Positions 4,088 to 8,531 of a DNA stretch of 10,442 bases are shown here, in pieces; position 1 is the stretch's first letter; each line of letters opens with the position of its first letter. The notes below the pieces were generated by a model. It ran no database searches, was not told where the DNA came from, and was given only the letters and a program-made list of their open reading frames with translations. The position numbers and the translations under genes are program-made. Source of the stretch: Campylobacterota bacterium. Its GTDB lineage: Bacteria; Campylobacterota; Campylobacteria; Campylobacterales; Sulfurovaceae. The stretch lies in NCBI GenBank assembly GCA_051746505.1, contig JBNJFE010000026.1, positions 1 through 10,442 on the forward strand. The letters are read 5' to 3'.

Positions 4088-4118
4088 AGCAGTTTCCTTT
4101 TCCTATTTGAGACTCGGT

Positions 4119-4140
4119 ATTTCTTGTGACTTCAAGAAAT
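4119..4140. promoter_or_regulatory. Inverted repeat ATTTCTTG-N6-CAAGAAAT in the acs 5' region
   Basis: The repeat has 8-bp perfect arms separated by 6 bp and lies 32-53 bp upstream of the acs start codon at 4087. It is a candidate operator or 5'UTR element. Because the region is AT-rich, the repeat could be a chance occurrence. Confidence 0.25.
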
Positions 4141-4333
4141 ATATCAGTATAACTATATTTTTATAACATAGCAATAGTGTAGCATCTCTTTAAAAGTTGT
4201 GTATTTTTCTTACAACTTCCTGCTGAGTGTGAATTTTAGTAACATATGGCAGCGCTTAGGGTTGCAAAGCGTAGAAATAATAATATTGTTTAAGAAAAAT
4301 TTGAGCAAAAATGTGTAGTTCTGGCTGTGCGGG

Positions 4334-4349
4334 CATCGGCGCGCCGATG
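4334..4349. repeat. 16-bp perfect GC-rich palindrome CATCGGCGCGCCGATG
   Basis: The palindrome is read directly from the sequence. It is embedded in an otherwise AT-rich intergenic region and is followed by a -10-like tcATAAT. It may be a binding site for a dimeric regulator. Confidence 0.5.
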
Positions 4350-4408
4350 TTCATAATACGTTAATGAAAAGTTTATAAATCATTAAATTTTTAAGCGTAC
4401 AATTTCAC

Positions 4409-4422
4409 TGTCCCCCAAGCAA
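4409..4422 (+). repeat. 14-bp direct repeat TGTCCCCCAAGCAA, copy 1
   Basis: An identical 14-mer recurs at 4655-4668, 246 bp downstream in the same regulatory region. Confidence 0.6.
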
Positions 4423-4482
4423 TACCCTCCCGGTACCGTCTTCAGGTGCCGGGCCCCGAATTTACGGACAAGGAGGCCGGCC

Positions 4483-4830
4483 ATGTGCAAAAAAACAGCG
4501 ATCACGACAGTTAGCGCATTTTTGTCAGCGGTCCGAGGCATCCATCCAAAGCAGTGGGACCAGACAGTAAAAGCGCACGCGGGCAAAGCGTCTGCTTGGT
4601 TTCGATCCGGTCAGACAAACGATACCCTGATACGACAATTTTTCCATCTTGACTTGTCCCCCAAGCAAAATGAACAACTCCTTTTATTGCGGATCAAACA
4701 CAGGCAGCCCGTCCCTTCTCCCGCTGGCGCTTTGAAGGCTCACGGCTTTGAAAAAGACAGATATATCGATATAATGCCCCAAAAAAAGACACAACAAGCC
4801 AAAGCCCGGTCAATCGATAACAGACAGTGA
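4483..4830 (+). CDS. Hypothetical small basic protein of 115 aa; it is uncertain whether this ORF is coding
   Basis: A perfect Shine-Dalgarno AAGGAGG sits 6 nt before the ATG, and the ORF ends 13 nt before the response-regulator start. The protein has no recognisable domain and looks low-complexity or disordered, especially in its C-terminal half. A near-consensus sigma70-type promoter lies inside its 3' end. The region may instead be a structured leader or sRNA. Confidence 0.3.
   Translation: MCKKTAITTVSAFLSAVRGIHPKQWDQTVKAHAGKASAWFRSGQTNDTLIRQFFHLDLSPKQNEQLLLLRIKHRQPVPSPAGALKAHGFEKDRYIDIMPQKKTQQAKARSIDNRQ
4655..4668 (+). repeat. 14-bp direct repeat TGTCCCCCAAGCAA, copy 2
   Basis: This copy is identical to 4409-4422. 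It lies inside the questionable small ORF and about 80 bp upstream of the predicted -35 at 4748. Confidence 0.6.
4748..4775 (+). promoter_or_regulatory. Sigma70-type promoter TTGAAA-N16-TATAAT for the response-regulator and kinase operon
   Basis: TTGAAA lies at 4748-4753 and TATAAT at 4770-4775, with a 16-bp spacer. A 12-bp palindrome TATATCGATATA at 4762-4773 overlaps the -10 box and is a possible autoregulatory operator. The predicted leader of about 60 nt contains the RBS aaggata ahead of the GTG at 4844. Confidence 0.4.
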
Positions 4831-4843
4831 AAGGATAGAAACG

Positions 4844-5533
4844 GTGATACGCGTAGCAATGGTCGAGGATGATCTGGATTTAGCCAATCTCCTCACCGAA
4901 TATTTACAACAGTTTTCGATCGAAGTTGACAGCTTTGAAGATCCTTTCATCGCTTTAAGCGCGATCGGTTTAAAAGAGTATGATCTGATCATTCTCGATC
5001 TTTCGCTGCCGGGCATGGACGGCCTTGAAGTTTGTAAAGAGCTGGTGGACAAATATGAAATCCCAATCATTATATCATCGGCAAGAAGCGATATAGCCGA
5101 TAAAGTCACCGCACTGCAACTGGGTGCGGATGACTACCTTCCAAAACCCTATGACCCCCGAGAACTTGAAGTGCGTATAAAAGCGCTGCTTCGAAGAACC
5201 AATAAAGGCAGTCCGCAAGACAGCGGCAAAGAAAGCAGCGGCGGTATCTTTGTGTATGACCCCAGAAAAAAAATTATTACCAAAAACGGCAGCGAGCTAC
5301 AGCTGACTGCGGCGGAGTTTGAACTTTTGAGCCTGCTCATCAGCAGAAAAGGGTTTGTCGTCAGCCGCGAAGAGATTCTTAACGAATGCGAACTGCTGCA
5401 CAGCGATGATGAAAAAAGCAGTTCGATTGCCGTTATCATCAGCCGAATCCGCTCCAAAATCGAAGCCAACAGCAAAAGACCCCAGTATCTGGTGACCGTC
5501 CGCGGCGTGGGATACAAGCTCAAAGAGGAATAA
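4844..5533 (+). CDS. OmpR/PhoB-family two-component response regulator
   Basis: The receiver domain shows VAMVEDD, the phospho-acceptor context DLIILDLSLPGMDG and the conserved PIIISSARSD with lysine. The C-terminal winged-helix has LTAAEFELLSLL and YLVTVRGVGYKL. A GTG start at 4844 is preferred, with the RBS aaggat 6 nt upstream. The ATG at 4859 is the alternative start. Confidence 0.9.
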   Translation: MIRVAMVEDDLDLANLLTEYLQQFSIEVDSFEDPFIALSAIGLKEYDLIILDLSLPGMDGLEVCKELVDKYEIPIIISSARSDIADKVTALQLGADDYLPKPYDPRELEVRIKALLRRTNKGSPQDSGKESSGGIFVYDPRKKIITKNGSELQLTAAEFELLSLLISRKGFVVSREEILNECELLHSDDEKSSSIAVIISRIRSKIEANSKRPQYLVTVRGVGYKLKEE

Positions 5534-6787
5534 TTGCCCAAAACAAACTCTATTTTCTTTACCATTTCGCTTGTGTTTGCCATCGCGGGATTTTCTATTT
5601 TGATCAGTTTTTATTTTCTGCATCAAGCCAATACGATGCAGCATCAAAGCTTTTTGGAAAGAAAGCACTTTGCCGTTTCGCGTATCCTCATCCGCGCCCA
5701 CAACGAGGATATGATTTCCAAGGACCTTTTATCCTCCCTGGATTCGCTTAATTACAAACTCAAAACCGATCTGCAGCAGATCGCGGATTTTTTGCAGGAT
5801 GAGGATGTGGTGCTGCTGCACTCAAAAGATTTGCAAAACGGGCAAAGTGTCAATATTTACCAGATGCGAAACCATCATTATATCCTGGTCAACTCCTCAG
5901 GCAGTCTGTATCTGCTCAAAGACAAAACGCCGGTCGTGTTTTTCAACCCCGCCATTATCATTATCTTTTTAGCCATTATGGCGGTATTTATCCTTATATA
6001 CCTGACCACGGTGCGCAAACTGTATCCCATCAAAACGCTGAAAAACCATATTAAAAAGCTGGGCAATGAATCTTTTGATATCAAGTACAATATCAAAGGC
6101 AGCGATGAAATATCCGAACTGGCCCAGGAGTTTGCCAAGAGTTCCAAACGTTTGGAAAAACTCAAAGAATCGCGCAATATTTTTATACGCAATATCATGC
6201 ATGAACTCAAAACCCCCATCATGAAAGGCAAGCTTTTAAACGAATTGCCAAAGACCGAAGATAACAATGAAAAGATGAAGGAAGTTTTTTACCGGCTGGA
6301 AAATTTGATCAACGAGTTTGCCAGTATCGAGGAAGTGATCGCCGCATCAGAAAGTATCACGATGAAAAGCTACTCCATAGCCGACGTGATCGATAACGCA
6401 AAAGATATGCTGCTGTATGACGAAGACAGTGAGCGCATTGTTGTCCAAAACGCTTCTGCGTGCACCCAGAACGTTACGCTTAACTTCAAGCTTGCCTCTA
6501 TCGCGTTTAAAAACCTCCTTGATAATGCGATGAAATACGCAGAGGATAAAAAGGTCACGATCGTATGCCGCACGGATGCGGTGAGCTTTCAAAACAGGGC
6601 TAAGCCCTTAAGCGAAGATTTACAAACCTATTTTGAACCCTTTGTCAAAGACGCCAAGCAAAATAGTTCCAGCTTTGGCCTGGGATTGTATATCGTGAAA
6701 AAAATCCTGGAAGTACACGGGTTTGATTTAGCCTATACCCATGAACAGGGATACAATATCTTTACGGTGCGCTTTACAGATCGCTGA
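5534..6787 (+). CDS. Sensor histidine kinase with 2 TM helices, a periplasmic domain of about 105 aa, HAMP, and HisKA plus HATPase domains
   Basis: The H-box is IMHELKTPI, the N-box LLDNAMKYA and the G2 box GLGLYIVKKIL. TM helices lie at about 8-30 and 138-160. A TTG start follows the regulator's TAA stop directly in the same frame, and a GTG at 5573 is the alternative. The G1 (DxGxG) box is not recognisable. Confidence 0.85.
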   Translation: MPKTNSIFFTISLVFAIAGFSILISFYFLHQANTMQHQSFLERKHFAVSRILIRAHNEDMISKDLLSSLDSLNYKLKTDLQQIADFLQDEDVVLLHSKDLQNGQSVNIYQMRNHHYILVNSSGSLYLLKDKTPVVFFNPAIIIIFLAIMAVFILIYLTTVRKLYPIKTLKNHIKKLGNESFDIKYNIKGSDEISELAQEFAKSSKRLEKLKESRNIFIRNIMHELKTPIMKGKLLNELPKTEDNNEKMKEVFYRLENLINEFASIEEVIAASESITMKSYSIADVIDNAKDMLLYDEDSERIVVQNASACTQNVTLNFKLASIAFKNLLDNAMKYAEDKKVTIVCRTDAVSFQNRAKPLSEDLQTYFEPFVKDAKQNSSSFGLGLYIVKKILEVHGFDLAYTHEQGYNIFTVRFTDR

Positions 6788-7226
6788 AATCGATATCGCT
6801 GCTGTCAAAGGAATCGTTTTTGGTAAAAAAGGCGGGTTCCTTGCCGCCGGCGTGATCGAGCAGATCGCAAAGCCGATACAGCAGTTTGTGCGCATCTTTG
6901 TCCGTTGCCTTTAACAGCGTGGACGCCAGCTTTGGATTGTGCTTTTGATCAAGCAGTCTGGTATAGAGGTTTTTGATCGCAAAATGCGACTCTTCCAGGT
7001 CCGTATACTGGTAAAAAAGCAGAAAATACCCCTCTTCTAACTCCAGTACCGTGTCACTGGGGCGCGTCATTTTGTCCAGCATCTGTTTGTCAAGTGAAGA
7101 ATCGGCCCGCAGTATAGCGACGCTGACGGGAACGTCGTATTTGATGAGCTGGTTGAGAAAGTGCGGCAGGGTCTGCTGCGTGGTTTCACTCCAGGGTTTG
7201 ATGCGTTGAAAACAGTGTTGGGCCAT
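6774..7226 (-). CDS. Hypothetical 150-aa protein with a degenerate GGDEF-like (nucleotidyl-cyclase-fold) core
   Basis: The segment VAILRADSSLDKQMLDKMTRPSDTVLELEEGYFLLFYQYTDLEES follows the GGDEF-domain pattern (vallDiD...R..D...RlGGDEFlll..t.le.a), with LEEGY in place of GGDEF. The DxLTGLxNR onset is absent. The ORF converges with the kinase 3' end and overlaps it by 14 bp, and it is divergent from the EncFtn gene. Confidence 0.5.
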   Translation of the reverse strand: MAQHCFQRIKPWSETTQQTLPHFLNQLIKYDVPVSVAILRADSSLDKQMLDKMTRPSDTVLELEEGYFLLFYQYTDLEESHFAIKNLYTRLLDQKHNPKLASTLLKATDKDAHKLLYRLCDLLDHAGGKEPAFFTKNDSFDSSDIDFSDL

Positions 7227-7345: not shown

Positions 7346-7717
7346 ATGGCTCATGAAGGTTTTCACGAAGATCCAAGTCAATTATCAAATTACGCAAAAG
7401 ATTATCACAGAATCATAGAAAGTACGATGGAAGAACTTGAAGCGGTAGACTGGTACAACCAGCGGGCCGAGTGCGCCACCGACGAGGAGGCCAGGCGCAT
7501 TATGGAACACAACCGTGATGAAGAGATTGAACACGCCTGCATGGGTATTGAGTGGCTGCGCAAAAATTCGCCCGTGTGGGATGAGATGCTAAGGGAGTTT
7601 TTATTTAAAGACGGCGATATCGTCGGCAACGAAGAAGCAATGACCGGCGGTGAAAGCCAGGAAAGCGAGCCCGCGGGCAGCGGCGGTACGCTCAATATCG
7701 GAAAAAACAGCAGATAA
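7346..7717 (+). CDS. Encapsulated ferritin-like protein (EncFtn), an encapsulin cargo with a C-terminal targeting peptide
   Basis: The core MEELEAVDWYNQRAECATDEEARRIMEHNRDEEIEHACMGIEWLRKNSPVWDEMLREFLF matches the EncFtn or Flp four-helix ferroxidase family, with conserved Glu and His iron ligands in the ExxH contexts. The C-terminus is a Gly/Ser/Glu-rich linker ending in GSGGTLNIGKNSR, which resembles the encapsulin cargo-loading peptide consensus (S/T)LxIGxL(K/R). The RBS aaggaaa lies 5 nt upstream. Confidence 0.85.
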   Translation: MAHEGFHEDPSQLSNYAKDYHRIIESTMEELEAVDWYNQRAECATDEEARRIMEHNRDEEIEHACMGIEWLRKNSPVWDEMLREFLFKDGDIVGNEEAMTGGESQESEPAGSGGTLNIGKNSR

Positions 7718-7727
7718 AGGAGAGATA

Positions 7728-8531
7728 ATGGAAATTTTAAACAGAGTAAACGCCCCTTTCGGTGAGGGCGTATGGAGTGAAATCGATGAGGTTATGGGGG
7801 AGTTTTTAGGCAAACGCCTTAACCTTAGAGCCGCGGTTGATTTCAAAGACGGGTATGATTATCATACTGACGGTATTTCCACGGGAGAAATTAAATCCGT
7901 CTCAAATAAAAACGATCTGAGCATTCAGGCAAGAGTGCCTTTAAATATGATCGAAATCAAAAAGCGTTTTAAACTGGGCGGCAGCGTGATCGAAGATATC
8001 AAACGGGGTATGAGCGATTATGACGACAGCGCGTTTGCCGATGCTGCTAACGCCTTTGCCGCAAGTGAAAACGGTATGATCCTGCAAGGTATGAAACAAG
8101 CTGGAATCGAGGGGATCATGAGCAGCGGCGAAGTCAAAAGCGTCAGTGTGAATTCTGCCAAGGATATCCTCTCAGCCGTGGCCAAGGGCCTTGGTACGTT
8201 TAACAAAGAGTTTGTCGGCGGTCCCTTTAAACTCGTGATATCAAGTGCGACCATGGCCAAGCTGTATACGGAATTTTTTGACGGTATCAGCGTCAAAGCC
8301 AAGCTTGATGATATCCTGGGCGCAGGCAATATCGTAGTTAACGAAGATATCGGTGACAAAGACGCGCTGCTGCTTTCGCAGCAGGGCGGAGACTTTGAAT
8401 TTTACAGCGGGCTTGACGTAAGCGTGGGCTTTGAGAAAGAGACCAAAGACGGTGTGGAACTGTTTATAACCCAGACATGCGCGTTTCGAGTGCTTGGCCC
8501 AGAAGCGGCTATAGCCATCAAGATGAAATAA
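7728..8531 (+). CDS. Family-1 encapsulin nanocompartment shell protein (HK97 fold)
   Basis: The 267-aa product runs MEILNRVNAPF...GGDFEFYSGLDVSVGFEKETKDGVELFITQTCAFRVLGPEAAIAIKMK and aligns along its full length with Thermotoga maritima encapsulin, including the C-terminal GGDF...LFITETF motif. The ATG at 7728 has the RBS AAAGGAGAG and sits 10 nt after the EncFtn stop. The tabulated start at 7650 would overlap EncFtn and is rejected. Confidence 0.9.
   Translation: MEILNRVNAPFGEGVWSEIDEVMGEFLGKRLNLRAAVDFKDGYDYHTDGISTGEIKSVSNKNDLSIQARVPLNMIEIKKRFKLGGSVIEDIKRGMSDYDDSAFADAANAFAASENGMILQGMKQAGIEGIMSSGEVKSVSVNSAKDILSAVAKGLGTFNKEFVGGPFKLVISSATMAKLYTEFFDGISVKAKLDDILGAGNIVVNEDIGDKDALLLSQQGGDFEFYSGLDVSVGFEKETKDGVELFITQTCAFRVLGPEAAIAIKMK

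Follow-up and report, generated by a model that had tools for sequence, protein, structure and literature searches.

The Spy/CpxP/ZraP proteins (PF07813) are small, helical and exported and carry two LTXXQ motifs, and both cpxP and zraP lie beside a two-component system, cpxP being divergently transcribed. Activators of the PhoB/OmpR type act at promoters with a pho-box layout, in which direct repeats replace the -35 hexamer. CpxP keeps CpxA inactive until stress titrates CpxP away (PMC11790278). Here we analyse a stretch of 10,442 nucleotides of a Campylobacterota genome (contig JBNJFE010000026.1 of assembly GCA_051746505.1, forward strand; hereafter the window), whose response regulator (RR) is identical to a protein of a metagenome-assembled genome annotated as "Campylobacterota bacterium". 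In this window a 756-bp gap separates a GGDEF-EAL gene and acs, both on the minus strand, from two plus-strand genes, the first for an OmpR-type RR and the second for a histidine kinase. We consider it probable that a spy/cpxP-like gene, the OmpR-type RR and an ArsS-family histidine kinase make up a three-gene operon whose promoter, leader and first cistron lie at positions 4360-4843, that the window's copy of the first gene is decaying, and that the identity of two 14-mers found in this region is coincidental.

A small gene between acs and the response regulator

The RR (4844-5533, plus strand) is of the OmpR/PhoB type, with the Pfam domains Response_reg and Trans_reg_C, and is 76-80% identical to the RRs of syntenic relatives. 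The kinase that follows it (5534-6787, plus strand) carries HAMP and HATPase_c domains and passes the curated ArsS-family model of NCBIfam (NF038389) at 395.6 bits, the cut-off being 250. In this kinase family, in its OmpR-type partner and in phylum, the pair resembles ArsRS of Helicobacter pylori; a literature search found no Spy-like gene linked to ArsRS in Campylobacterota. The gene order is shared by the syntenic loci that we number L085 to L097, where acs is followed by a gap or a small gene and then by RR and kinase. An intact gene of ~144-162 aa occupies that place in five loci (L091/L092, L093, L094, L095 and L096/L097), and in four of the five it overlaps the RR start by 14 nt, which suggests translational coupling. 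Loci of Arcobacter, Sulfurimonas and others likewise have the small gene upstream of their orthologous RR, which indicates that the three-gene arrangement is old.

Within the gap of the window, a 115-aa open reading frame (ORF, 4483-4830, plus strand) had been described in the original prediction as questionable and its product as low-complexity. Direct searches with this ORF returned nothing from a 5.8-billion-protein collection, from JGI metagenomes or from an exact-product look-up, and a metagenome scan with the kinase returned nothing either; the product lies below every Pfam and NCBIfam threshold without any direct match, and gene callers leave the frame uncalled. Its homology was reached only via the neighbours of RR orthologs (75-79% identity) in the syntenic loci. 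When the proteins of these relatives were compared by tblastn with the window, they matched the frame of the ORF (E=5e-13 for L093, E=3e-9 for L094), and a family HMM built from 77 members, the window left out, aligned to it at 44 bits (E=1.6e-13; HMM positions 28-113 of 156, frame +0 at 4387-4827), with no other match in a six-frame translation of the window. A minus-strand ORF at 4383-4586 was also considered and rejected, having no family match and no sign of conservation. By these comparisons the ORF is a real gene by descent, derived from the small gene found between acs and RR across Campylobacterota. Truncated and diverged, it is orthologous to a periplasmic Spy/CpxP (LTXXQ) protein and has the first motif in the form LSPKQ. 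Its product, which aligns to a protein family, is more than a low-complexity sequence. The frame is not spurious, and the suggestion of a genuine small protein upstream of the RR holds as a matter of descent; what stands of the initial doubt is that the ORF lacks a defining motif and is passed over by gene callers.

The assignment of the family to Spy and CpxP rests on several comparisons. Three relatives score 19-23 bits against Pfam LTXXQ (PF07813), just below its cut-off of 24.3, and two further, more distant family members carry PF07813 as precomputed annotation. Against solved structures, the profile of the family matches Spy (3oeo, E=3e-10; 3o39, E=1e-7) and CpxP (3qzc, 0.024), which are also its best matches in NCBIfam. 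The AlphaFold model of a full-length relative (P0124) has a core pLDDT above 90, and its top Foldseek matches are Spy and CpxP with a probability of 1.0 and a target-normalised TM-score of ~0.5-0.6. An exhaustive search of the family gathered 580 cluster representatives, typically of 140-170 aa. The window ORF is therefore joined to the Spy/CpxP family by sequence similarity in two steps, through the orthologous-group HMM and through the profile of that group. As in Spy, CpxP and ZraP, the proteins of the relatives are small, exported and helical, with two LTXXQ motifs. With cpxP and zraP the gene shares a place next to a two-component system; unlike the divergent cpxP, it opens the RR-kinase operon as its first cistron and in relatives overlaps the RR start, and its partner kinase is of the ArsS family rather than CpxA or ZraS. 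We infer, by analogy, a CpxP-like role of the Spy-like protein in this operon, and the full-length relatives (145-170 aa, exported) would then act as periplasmic chaperones or as modulators of the kinase, as CpxP does with CpxA.

All features listed in the original prediction were located in the sequence at the coordinates given there, among them an abrupt change of composition at ~4400, where the GC content rises from 0.327 (4088-4399) to 0.505 (4400-4843). This does not make the downstream part a GC-rich island, as had been proposed, since 0.505 is ordinary here (0.472 for the whole window, 0.516 for acs), and the outlier is the AT-rich promoter region upstream. Four independent Logan assemblies give the same sequence over the parts of 4376-4843 that they cover, except for one synonymous difference at 4809, and the structure is therefore not an assembly artefact.

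Predicted promoter and leader of the proposed operon

Upstream of the small gene, three direct-repeat boxes with 11-bp phasing, GTTAAT (4360), GTTTAT (4371) and ATTAAA (4382), occupy 4360-4387 of the plus strand, and the last of them ends 10 nt upstream of a predicted -10 hexamer, TACAAT (4398-4403, plus strand). The boxes stand in the place of a -35 hexamer, the lack of which explains why a simple promoter scan did not list this promoter. Boxes of the form [GA]TT[AT]A[TAC] recur at -49, -38, -27 and -16 from the start of the -10 hexamer in all eight other loci of the clade and in four distant ones (L001, L003, L005, L006), with partial sets in four further loci; the window keeps those at -38, -27 and -16. 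The position of the -10 hexamer is equally conserved, being filled by TACAAT or TATAAT in 9/9 clade loci and by TATACT, TATAAT or CATAAT in the distant ones. Phased repeats replacing the -35 hexamer at a fixed distance from the -10 hexamer are the layout of an activator-dependent promoter, and promoters of the pho-box type share with this one the 11-bp direct repeats, the proximal box 10 nt before the -10 hexamer and the missing -35 hexamer; they differ in that the box sequence is here [GA]TTAA[TA] and the binding of the RR putative. This pho-box-like layout suggests that the boxes bind the operon's own OmpR/PhoB-type RR, in other words that the promoter is autoregulated and activated by its own regulator. 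A perfect 16-nt GC-rich palindrome (CATCGGCGCGCCGATG, 4334-4349) is specific to the window, and part of it takes the place of the fourth (-49) GTTAAT-like box of relatives.

Transcription most likely starts near G4410. In the layout of the leader, TACAAT is followed by six bases and then by the motif GTCCCCCAAGCAAT (4410-4423, plus strand), which would form positions +1 to +14 of the mRNA and is predicted to be single-stranded. The motif is identical from G4410 on in the window, L088, L093, L094 and L095, and is longer by one inserted base in L091 and L096; directly before it stand two variable bases, so that its conservation begins at the expected +1 base, seven bases after the -10 hexamer. 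Downstream of the motif, the window is predicted to form a 9-bp hairpin (CCCGGUACC-GUCUUCA-GGUGCCGGG, 4429-4453, plus strand) that is present in minimum-energy folds, and a hairpin of 9-14 bp occurs at the same place in every motif-carrying locus, with a different sequence each time. In a model-based alignment, 7 of the 13 hairpin pairs show compensatory double changes, 88.6% of the hairpin cells are paired (versus 37-49% when the partner columns are slid), and on four of five measures at most 1 of 500 shuffles reached the observed values; the window's own hairpin is out of register in this alignment, so that these figures are conservative. When 29 sources (the window and 28 loci) were scanned with a covariance model of the leader element, each locus of the close clade gave one full element, distant loci gave none, and no further copy with motif and hairpin came up, the other plus-strand matches being weak and partial only, including a coding near-copy in L085 at 13 bits.

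A structured leader or a small RNA had been offered as an explanation of the region. The first of these stands for 4410-4482, with its invariant motif and its hairpin under compensatory change; the second does not. The plus strand of 4400-4843 does fold better than shuffled sequences (z = -2.9), which together with the conserved 5' hairpin could speak for an independent small RNA or a riboswitch, the ORF then being a chance open frame. Yet the Rfam 15 covariance-model search that had been proposed as a check, run over the entire window, gave no match at E<=1, no conserved terminator follows the hairpin, the frame has significant homology at the protein level, and past the first 60 nt relatives keep the protein sequence and not that of the RNA. 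We find this explanation scarcely tenable.

The likeliest reading of the leader motif is that of a single-stranded site for a trans-acting factor. Going further, the C-rich 14-nt motif at the mRNA 5' end (GUCCCCCAAGCAAU) and its hairpin may constitute a previously undescribed, clade-specific cis-regulatory RNA element that docks a G-rich small RNA or an RNA-binding protein controlling the Spy/CpxP-like cistron of an ArsRS-type, envelope-sensing operon, with the window's downstream 14-mer as a second site for the same factor; we hold this extended version to be tentative and, on the whole, unlikely. The complement of GTCCCCCAAGCAAT is TTGCTTGGGGGAC. Three other roles of the motif were considered and set aside. 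As an anti-Shine-Dalgarno sequence it would have to pair CCCCC with GGAGG, which is centrally mismatched, and the two are paired in none of the folds. Pairing with another part of the same mRNA is not favoured either, the best duplex being weaker than the mean of shuffled motifs in six of seven loci and no better in the window. A leaderless upstream ORF starting at the motif is unconvincing, as past SPKQ the peptides are unconserved and synonymous variation is absent from the codons. The triplet whose last base opens the motif (4408-4410 in the window) is ATG or TTG in those loci of L085-L096 that have an intact Spy-like gene and CTG or ACG in loci where that gene is truncated or lost, a pattern that could reflect such a leaderless upstream ORF.

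The two 14-mers and the internal promoter-like site

The 14-mer TGTCCCCCAAGCAA is found exactly at 4409-4422, overlapping the leader motif, and at 4655-4668, 246 bp further on; the window has no third site, not even when two mismatches are allowed. The claim that such a pair is unlikely by chance was borne out, given that none of 200 dinucleotide shuffles yielded two matches with up to two mismatches allowed. Copy 2 (plus strand) falls within codons 58-62 of the ORF (TTG TCC CCC AAG CAA, from 4654), which encode L-S-P-K-Q, the first LTXXQ motif. At the same site relatives have LTPKQ, LTPTQ or LTPQQ in other codons, for example CTG ACC CCA AAA CAA, so that 10 or 11 of the 14 positions match the 14-mer in the five intact-gene loci; L085 reads CTG TCC CCC AAA CAA. 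From this comparison the two copies are different things, a leader motif in the first case and codons in the second, and not a repeat unit.

Most likely, the two copies agree by coincidence. Their identity would have arisen from a chance resemblance at 9-10 of 13 motif bases, completed by a T-to-S change and by GC-ward synonymous changes. Alternatively, the two 14-mers could be a functional pair recognised by one trans-acting factor, be it a G-rich small RNA, an RNA-binding protein or a DNA-binding regulator. Such a pair would account for an identity over 14 nt that is unlikely by chance, for the strong sequence-specific constraint on copy 1, which is kept unpaired, and for the near-copy GTCCCCCAAACAA at the coding position of L085. 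It sits badly, however, with the coding site of the five intact-gene loci, which varies as codons for LTP[KTQ]Q would, and with the covariance model of the leader element, which finds one copy per locus. A 9/13 match is expected ~0.5 times by chance in a 480-nt gene (our own calculation), and the differences that remain are the T-to-S change and the GC-ward synonymous changes, in a GC-enriched lineage. OmpR-type regulators, moreover, bind closely phased repeats and not sites 246 bp apart. We judge a functional pair to be quite improbable, and the specific proposal of paired regulator-binding sites finds no support at copy 2, where the sequence codes for L-S-P-K-Q and relatives match only in part (10-12/14). 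Better candidates for binding of the RR than the 14-mers are the three GTTAAT-like boxes at 4360-4387, phased 11 bp apart, which keep their positions across the phylum.

Further downstream, a promoter-like site (TTGAAA-N16-TATAAT, 4748-4775, plus strand) lies inside the ORF, 74 nt before the RR start. It agrees with the sigma-70 consensus at 11 of 12 positions with a 16-nt spacer, is the sole match of this quality in the window, and is equalled in 1.2% of 2000 sequences simulated for the 756-nt intergenic region with a first-order Markov model (P ~0.012). Hexamers and spacing are thus those of a sigma-70 promoter; conservation in relatives is lacking. Both hexamers are built from codons, TTGAAA from F-E-K and TATAAT from D-I-M, and at the same codons relatives have the weaker TTCGATAAA...CAAATAATG (TTCGAT...AATAAT). 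The palindrome TATATCGATATA (4762-4773), which overlaps the -10 box, is likewise unconserved and lineage-specific, some 12-nt palindrome appearing in ~22% of simulated regions. An internal promoter with a palindrome across its -10 box had been predicted; both are there and the promoter match is rare by simulation, but they are lineage-specific, and the promoter hexamers derive from codons.

The internal site may add to the transcription of RR and kinase. A stronger version would make it their main working promoter, with the upstream promoter and the ORF as relics. For this version speak its sigma-70 match, the best in the window, its short distance to the RR, and the observation that four of the five intact-gene relatives have a different TATAAT ~120 nt before the RR, in a segment deleted from the window, which the internal site would replace. 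On the other hand, the hexamers are by-products of the conserved codons and weaker in relatives, the upstream boxes, the -10 hexamer and the leader are still intact in the window, and in Campylobacterota a -35 hexamer is generally not required by promoters. We regard a main promoter at this place as possible, if somewhat unlikely.

State of the window's copy and wider setting

After motif and hairpin, the third part of the leader is a strong ribosome-binding site. Its perfect Shine-Dalgarno sequence, AAGGAGG (4470-4476, plus strand), lies 6 nt before the ATG at 4483 as predicted, at a place where relatives have GGAGGTT; the palindrome GGCCGGCC (4475-4482) that had been noted with it is also present and overlaps it, but is not conserved in relatives. 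The protein retains the start, a shortened hydrophobic N-terminus, and the blocks HLDLSPKQNEQLL (KLDLTPKQTEQLL in relatives) and FEKDRYIDIMPQKK (FDKEKFVQIMKQKR in relatives). Where relatives begin with MKK and a hydrophobic core of ~18 aa followed by LQA or ALA, the window has MCKK and a 13-aa core, with 9 aa fewer. According to the alignments, the copy lacks ~41 residues, and with its C-terminal third it has lost the second LTXXQ motif, which relatives have as LTIEQ or LTDNQ; the ORF stops 14 codons before the ancestral stop. Of the two LTXXQ motifs typical of Spy, CpxP and ZraP, the window thus has only the first. Its identity to relatives is 27-40% and extends over 54-99 residues only, versus 43-79% over ~140-150 residues among the relatives themselves at comparable RR divergence, and its structure model is of low confidence (mean pLDDT 59.9).

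Sister loci show further stages of loss. In L085 (5856-6008) a remnant of 50 aa is left, which retains LSPKQFEMLLDI and extends over the start of the RR, L088 (5780-6000) has only fragmentary similarity with indels and no long ORF, and in L087 (5880-6000) the gene is fully deleted, leaving the promoter ~105 nt from the RR. The copy in the window would accordingly be a decaying one, marked by an in-frame loss of ~41 codons, a shortened signal-peptide core and an elevated substitution rate, and its product probably no longer makes the canonical Spy/CpxP fold. At the junction with the RR (4828-4846, plus strand), the stop codon TGA (4828-4830) is followed directly by the RR Shine-Dalgarno sequence AAGGA (4831-4835) and then by the start GTG at 4844. 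Because the stop lies at the ribosome-binding site of the RR, the remnant may still be translated, and so preserve translational coupling to the RR.

A different view is that the 115-aa product is a functional, shortened accessory protein, an exported single LTXXQ-type helix pair that modulates the ArsS-family kinase or acts as a chaperone. The perfect Shine-Dalgarno sequence with an ATG at the ancestral start, the frame kept open over 115 codons despite the deletion, the still hydrophobic N-terminus and the conserved LDL[ST]PxQ and F[DE]K...IM blocks would all fit such a protein. It would, however, have to work with neither a second LTXXQ motif nor the long C-terminal helix; P0268 and P0158, the few further family members that we found to be cut short at the C-terminus, also resemble broken copies; helix-unfriendly substitutions (PVPSPAG, MPQ) have accumulated and divergence exceeds that of relatives; the confidence of the model falls far below that in the core of the full-length relative; and the gene is wholly lost in sister lineages and uncalled here. 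We therefore think a functional short form unlikely. Several observations nonetheless weigh against decay and against the reading of the operon as a whole. An ideal Shine-Dalgarno sequence and a deletion that keeps the frame fit continued selection rather than decay; 115 codons have stayed open in the ancestral frame (P ~0.028 by composition); and the maximal Kyte-Doolittle value of the N-terminus (1.83) is inside the range of relatives (1.67-2.62). The exact identity of the two 14-mers has to be accepted as a low-probability coincidence, the reading leaves the invariant leader motif unaccounted for, and it is from sequence that we deduce where transcription starts, whether the internal promoter is used and whether the ORF is translated.

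Other elements surround the operon. Next to the start of acs, the block ATAACTATATTTTTATAACATAGCAATAGTGTAGCAT (4149-4185) is conserved in 9/9 syntenic loci; read on the minus strand, it has TGCTA twice at a distance of 11 bp, shortly before a -10-like TATAGT/TATAAT for acs, and is likely the operator and promoter of that gene. The AT-rich half of the gap contains repeated TGTGTA and GTGTGAA...GTAACA blocks (4198-4204, 4227-4247 and 4312-4318), kept in relatives as GTGTGTAAAAT, GTGTGAAAT-N3-GTAACACATTTGT and GTGTAAATTTGAGACT, which may serve the divergent promoters as common regulator sites. Leader and ORF are bracketed by a perfect 10-nt inverted repeat (TTTCACTGTC, 4403-4412; GACAGTGAAA, 4823-4832) whose second arm covers the ORF stop; we treat it as a chance occurrence, as ~0.5 such pairs are expected (our own estimate) and its first arm lies mostly upstream of the predicted +1. 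A 150-aa ORF on the minus strand (6774-7226), convergent with the kinase, has no Pfam or NCBIfam match. Downstream of the kinase follow genes for an encapsulated ferritin (EncFtn-like, 7346-7717) and an encapsulin shell protein (Linocin_M18, 7650-8531). In L085, L089 and L091 the kinase is directly followed by ABC-3 transporter genes, with ZnuA and Fur as well in L085 and L089, and the encapsulin pair looks like an insertion.

The locus is largely ordinary except for its conserved leader motif, a small and well-defined element. An unannotated "intergenic" stretch of 756 bp resolves into a promoter, a leader and the remnant of a gene. The promoter of the operon, with its four phased boxes, is deeply conserved, and these boxes are concrete candidate binding sites for the regulator. 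As to the design of the operon, ArsS-family two-component operons of this kind across Campylobacterota have, as their ancestral first cistron, a gene for a Spy/CpxP-like periplasmic protein. The repeated loss of this accessory gene in one clade, where the regulator pair was kept, amounts to a natural experiment on the dispensability of the accessory protein.

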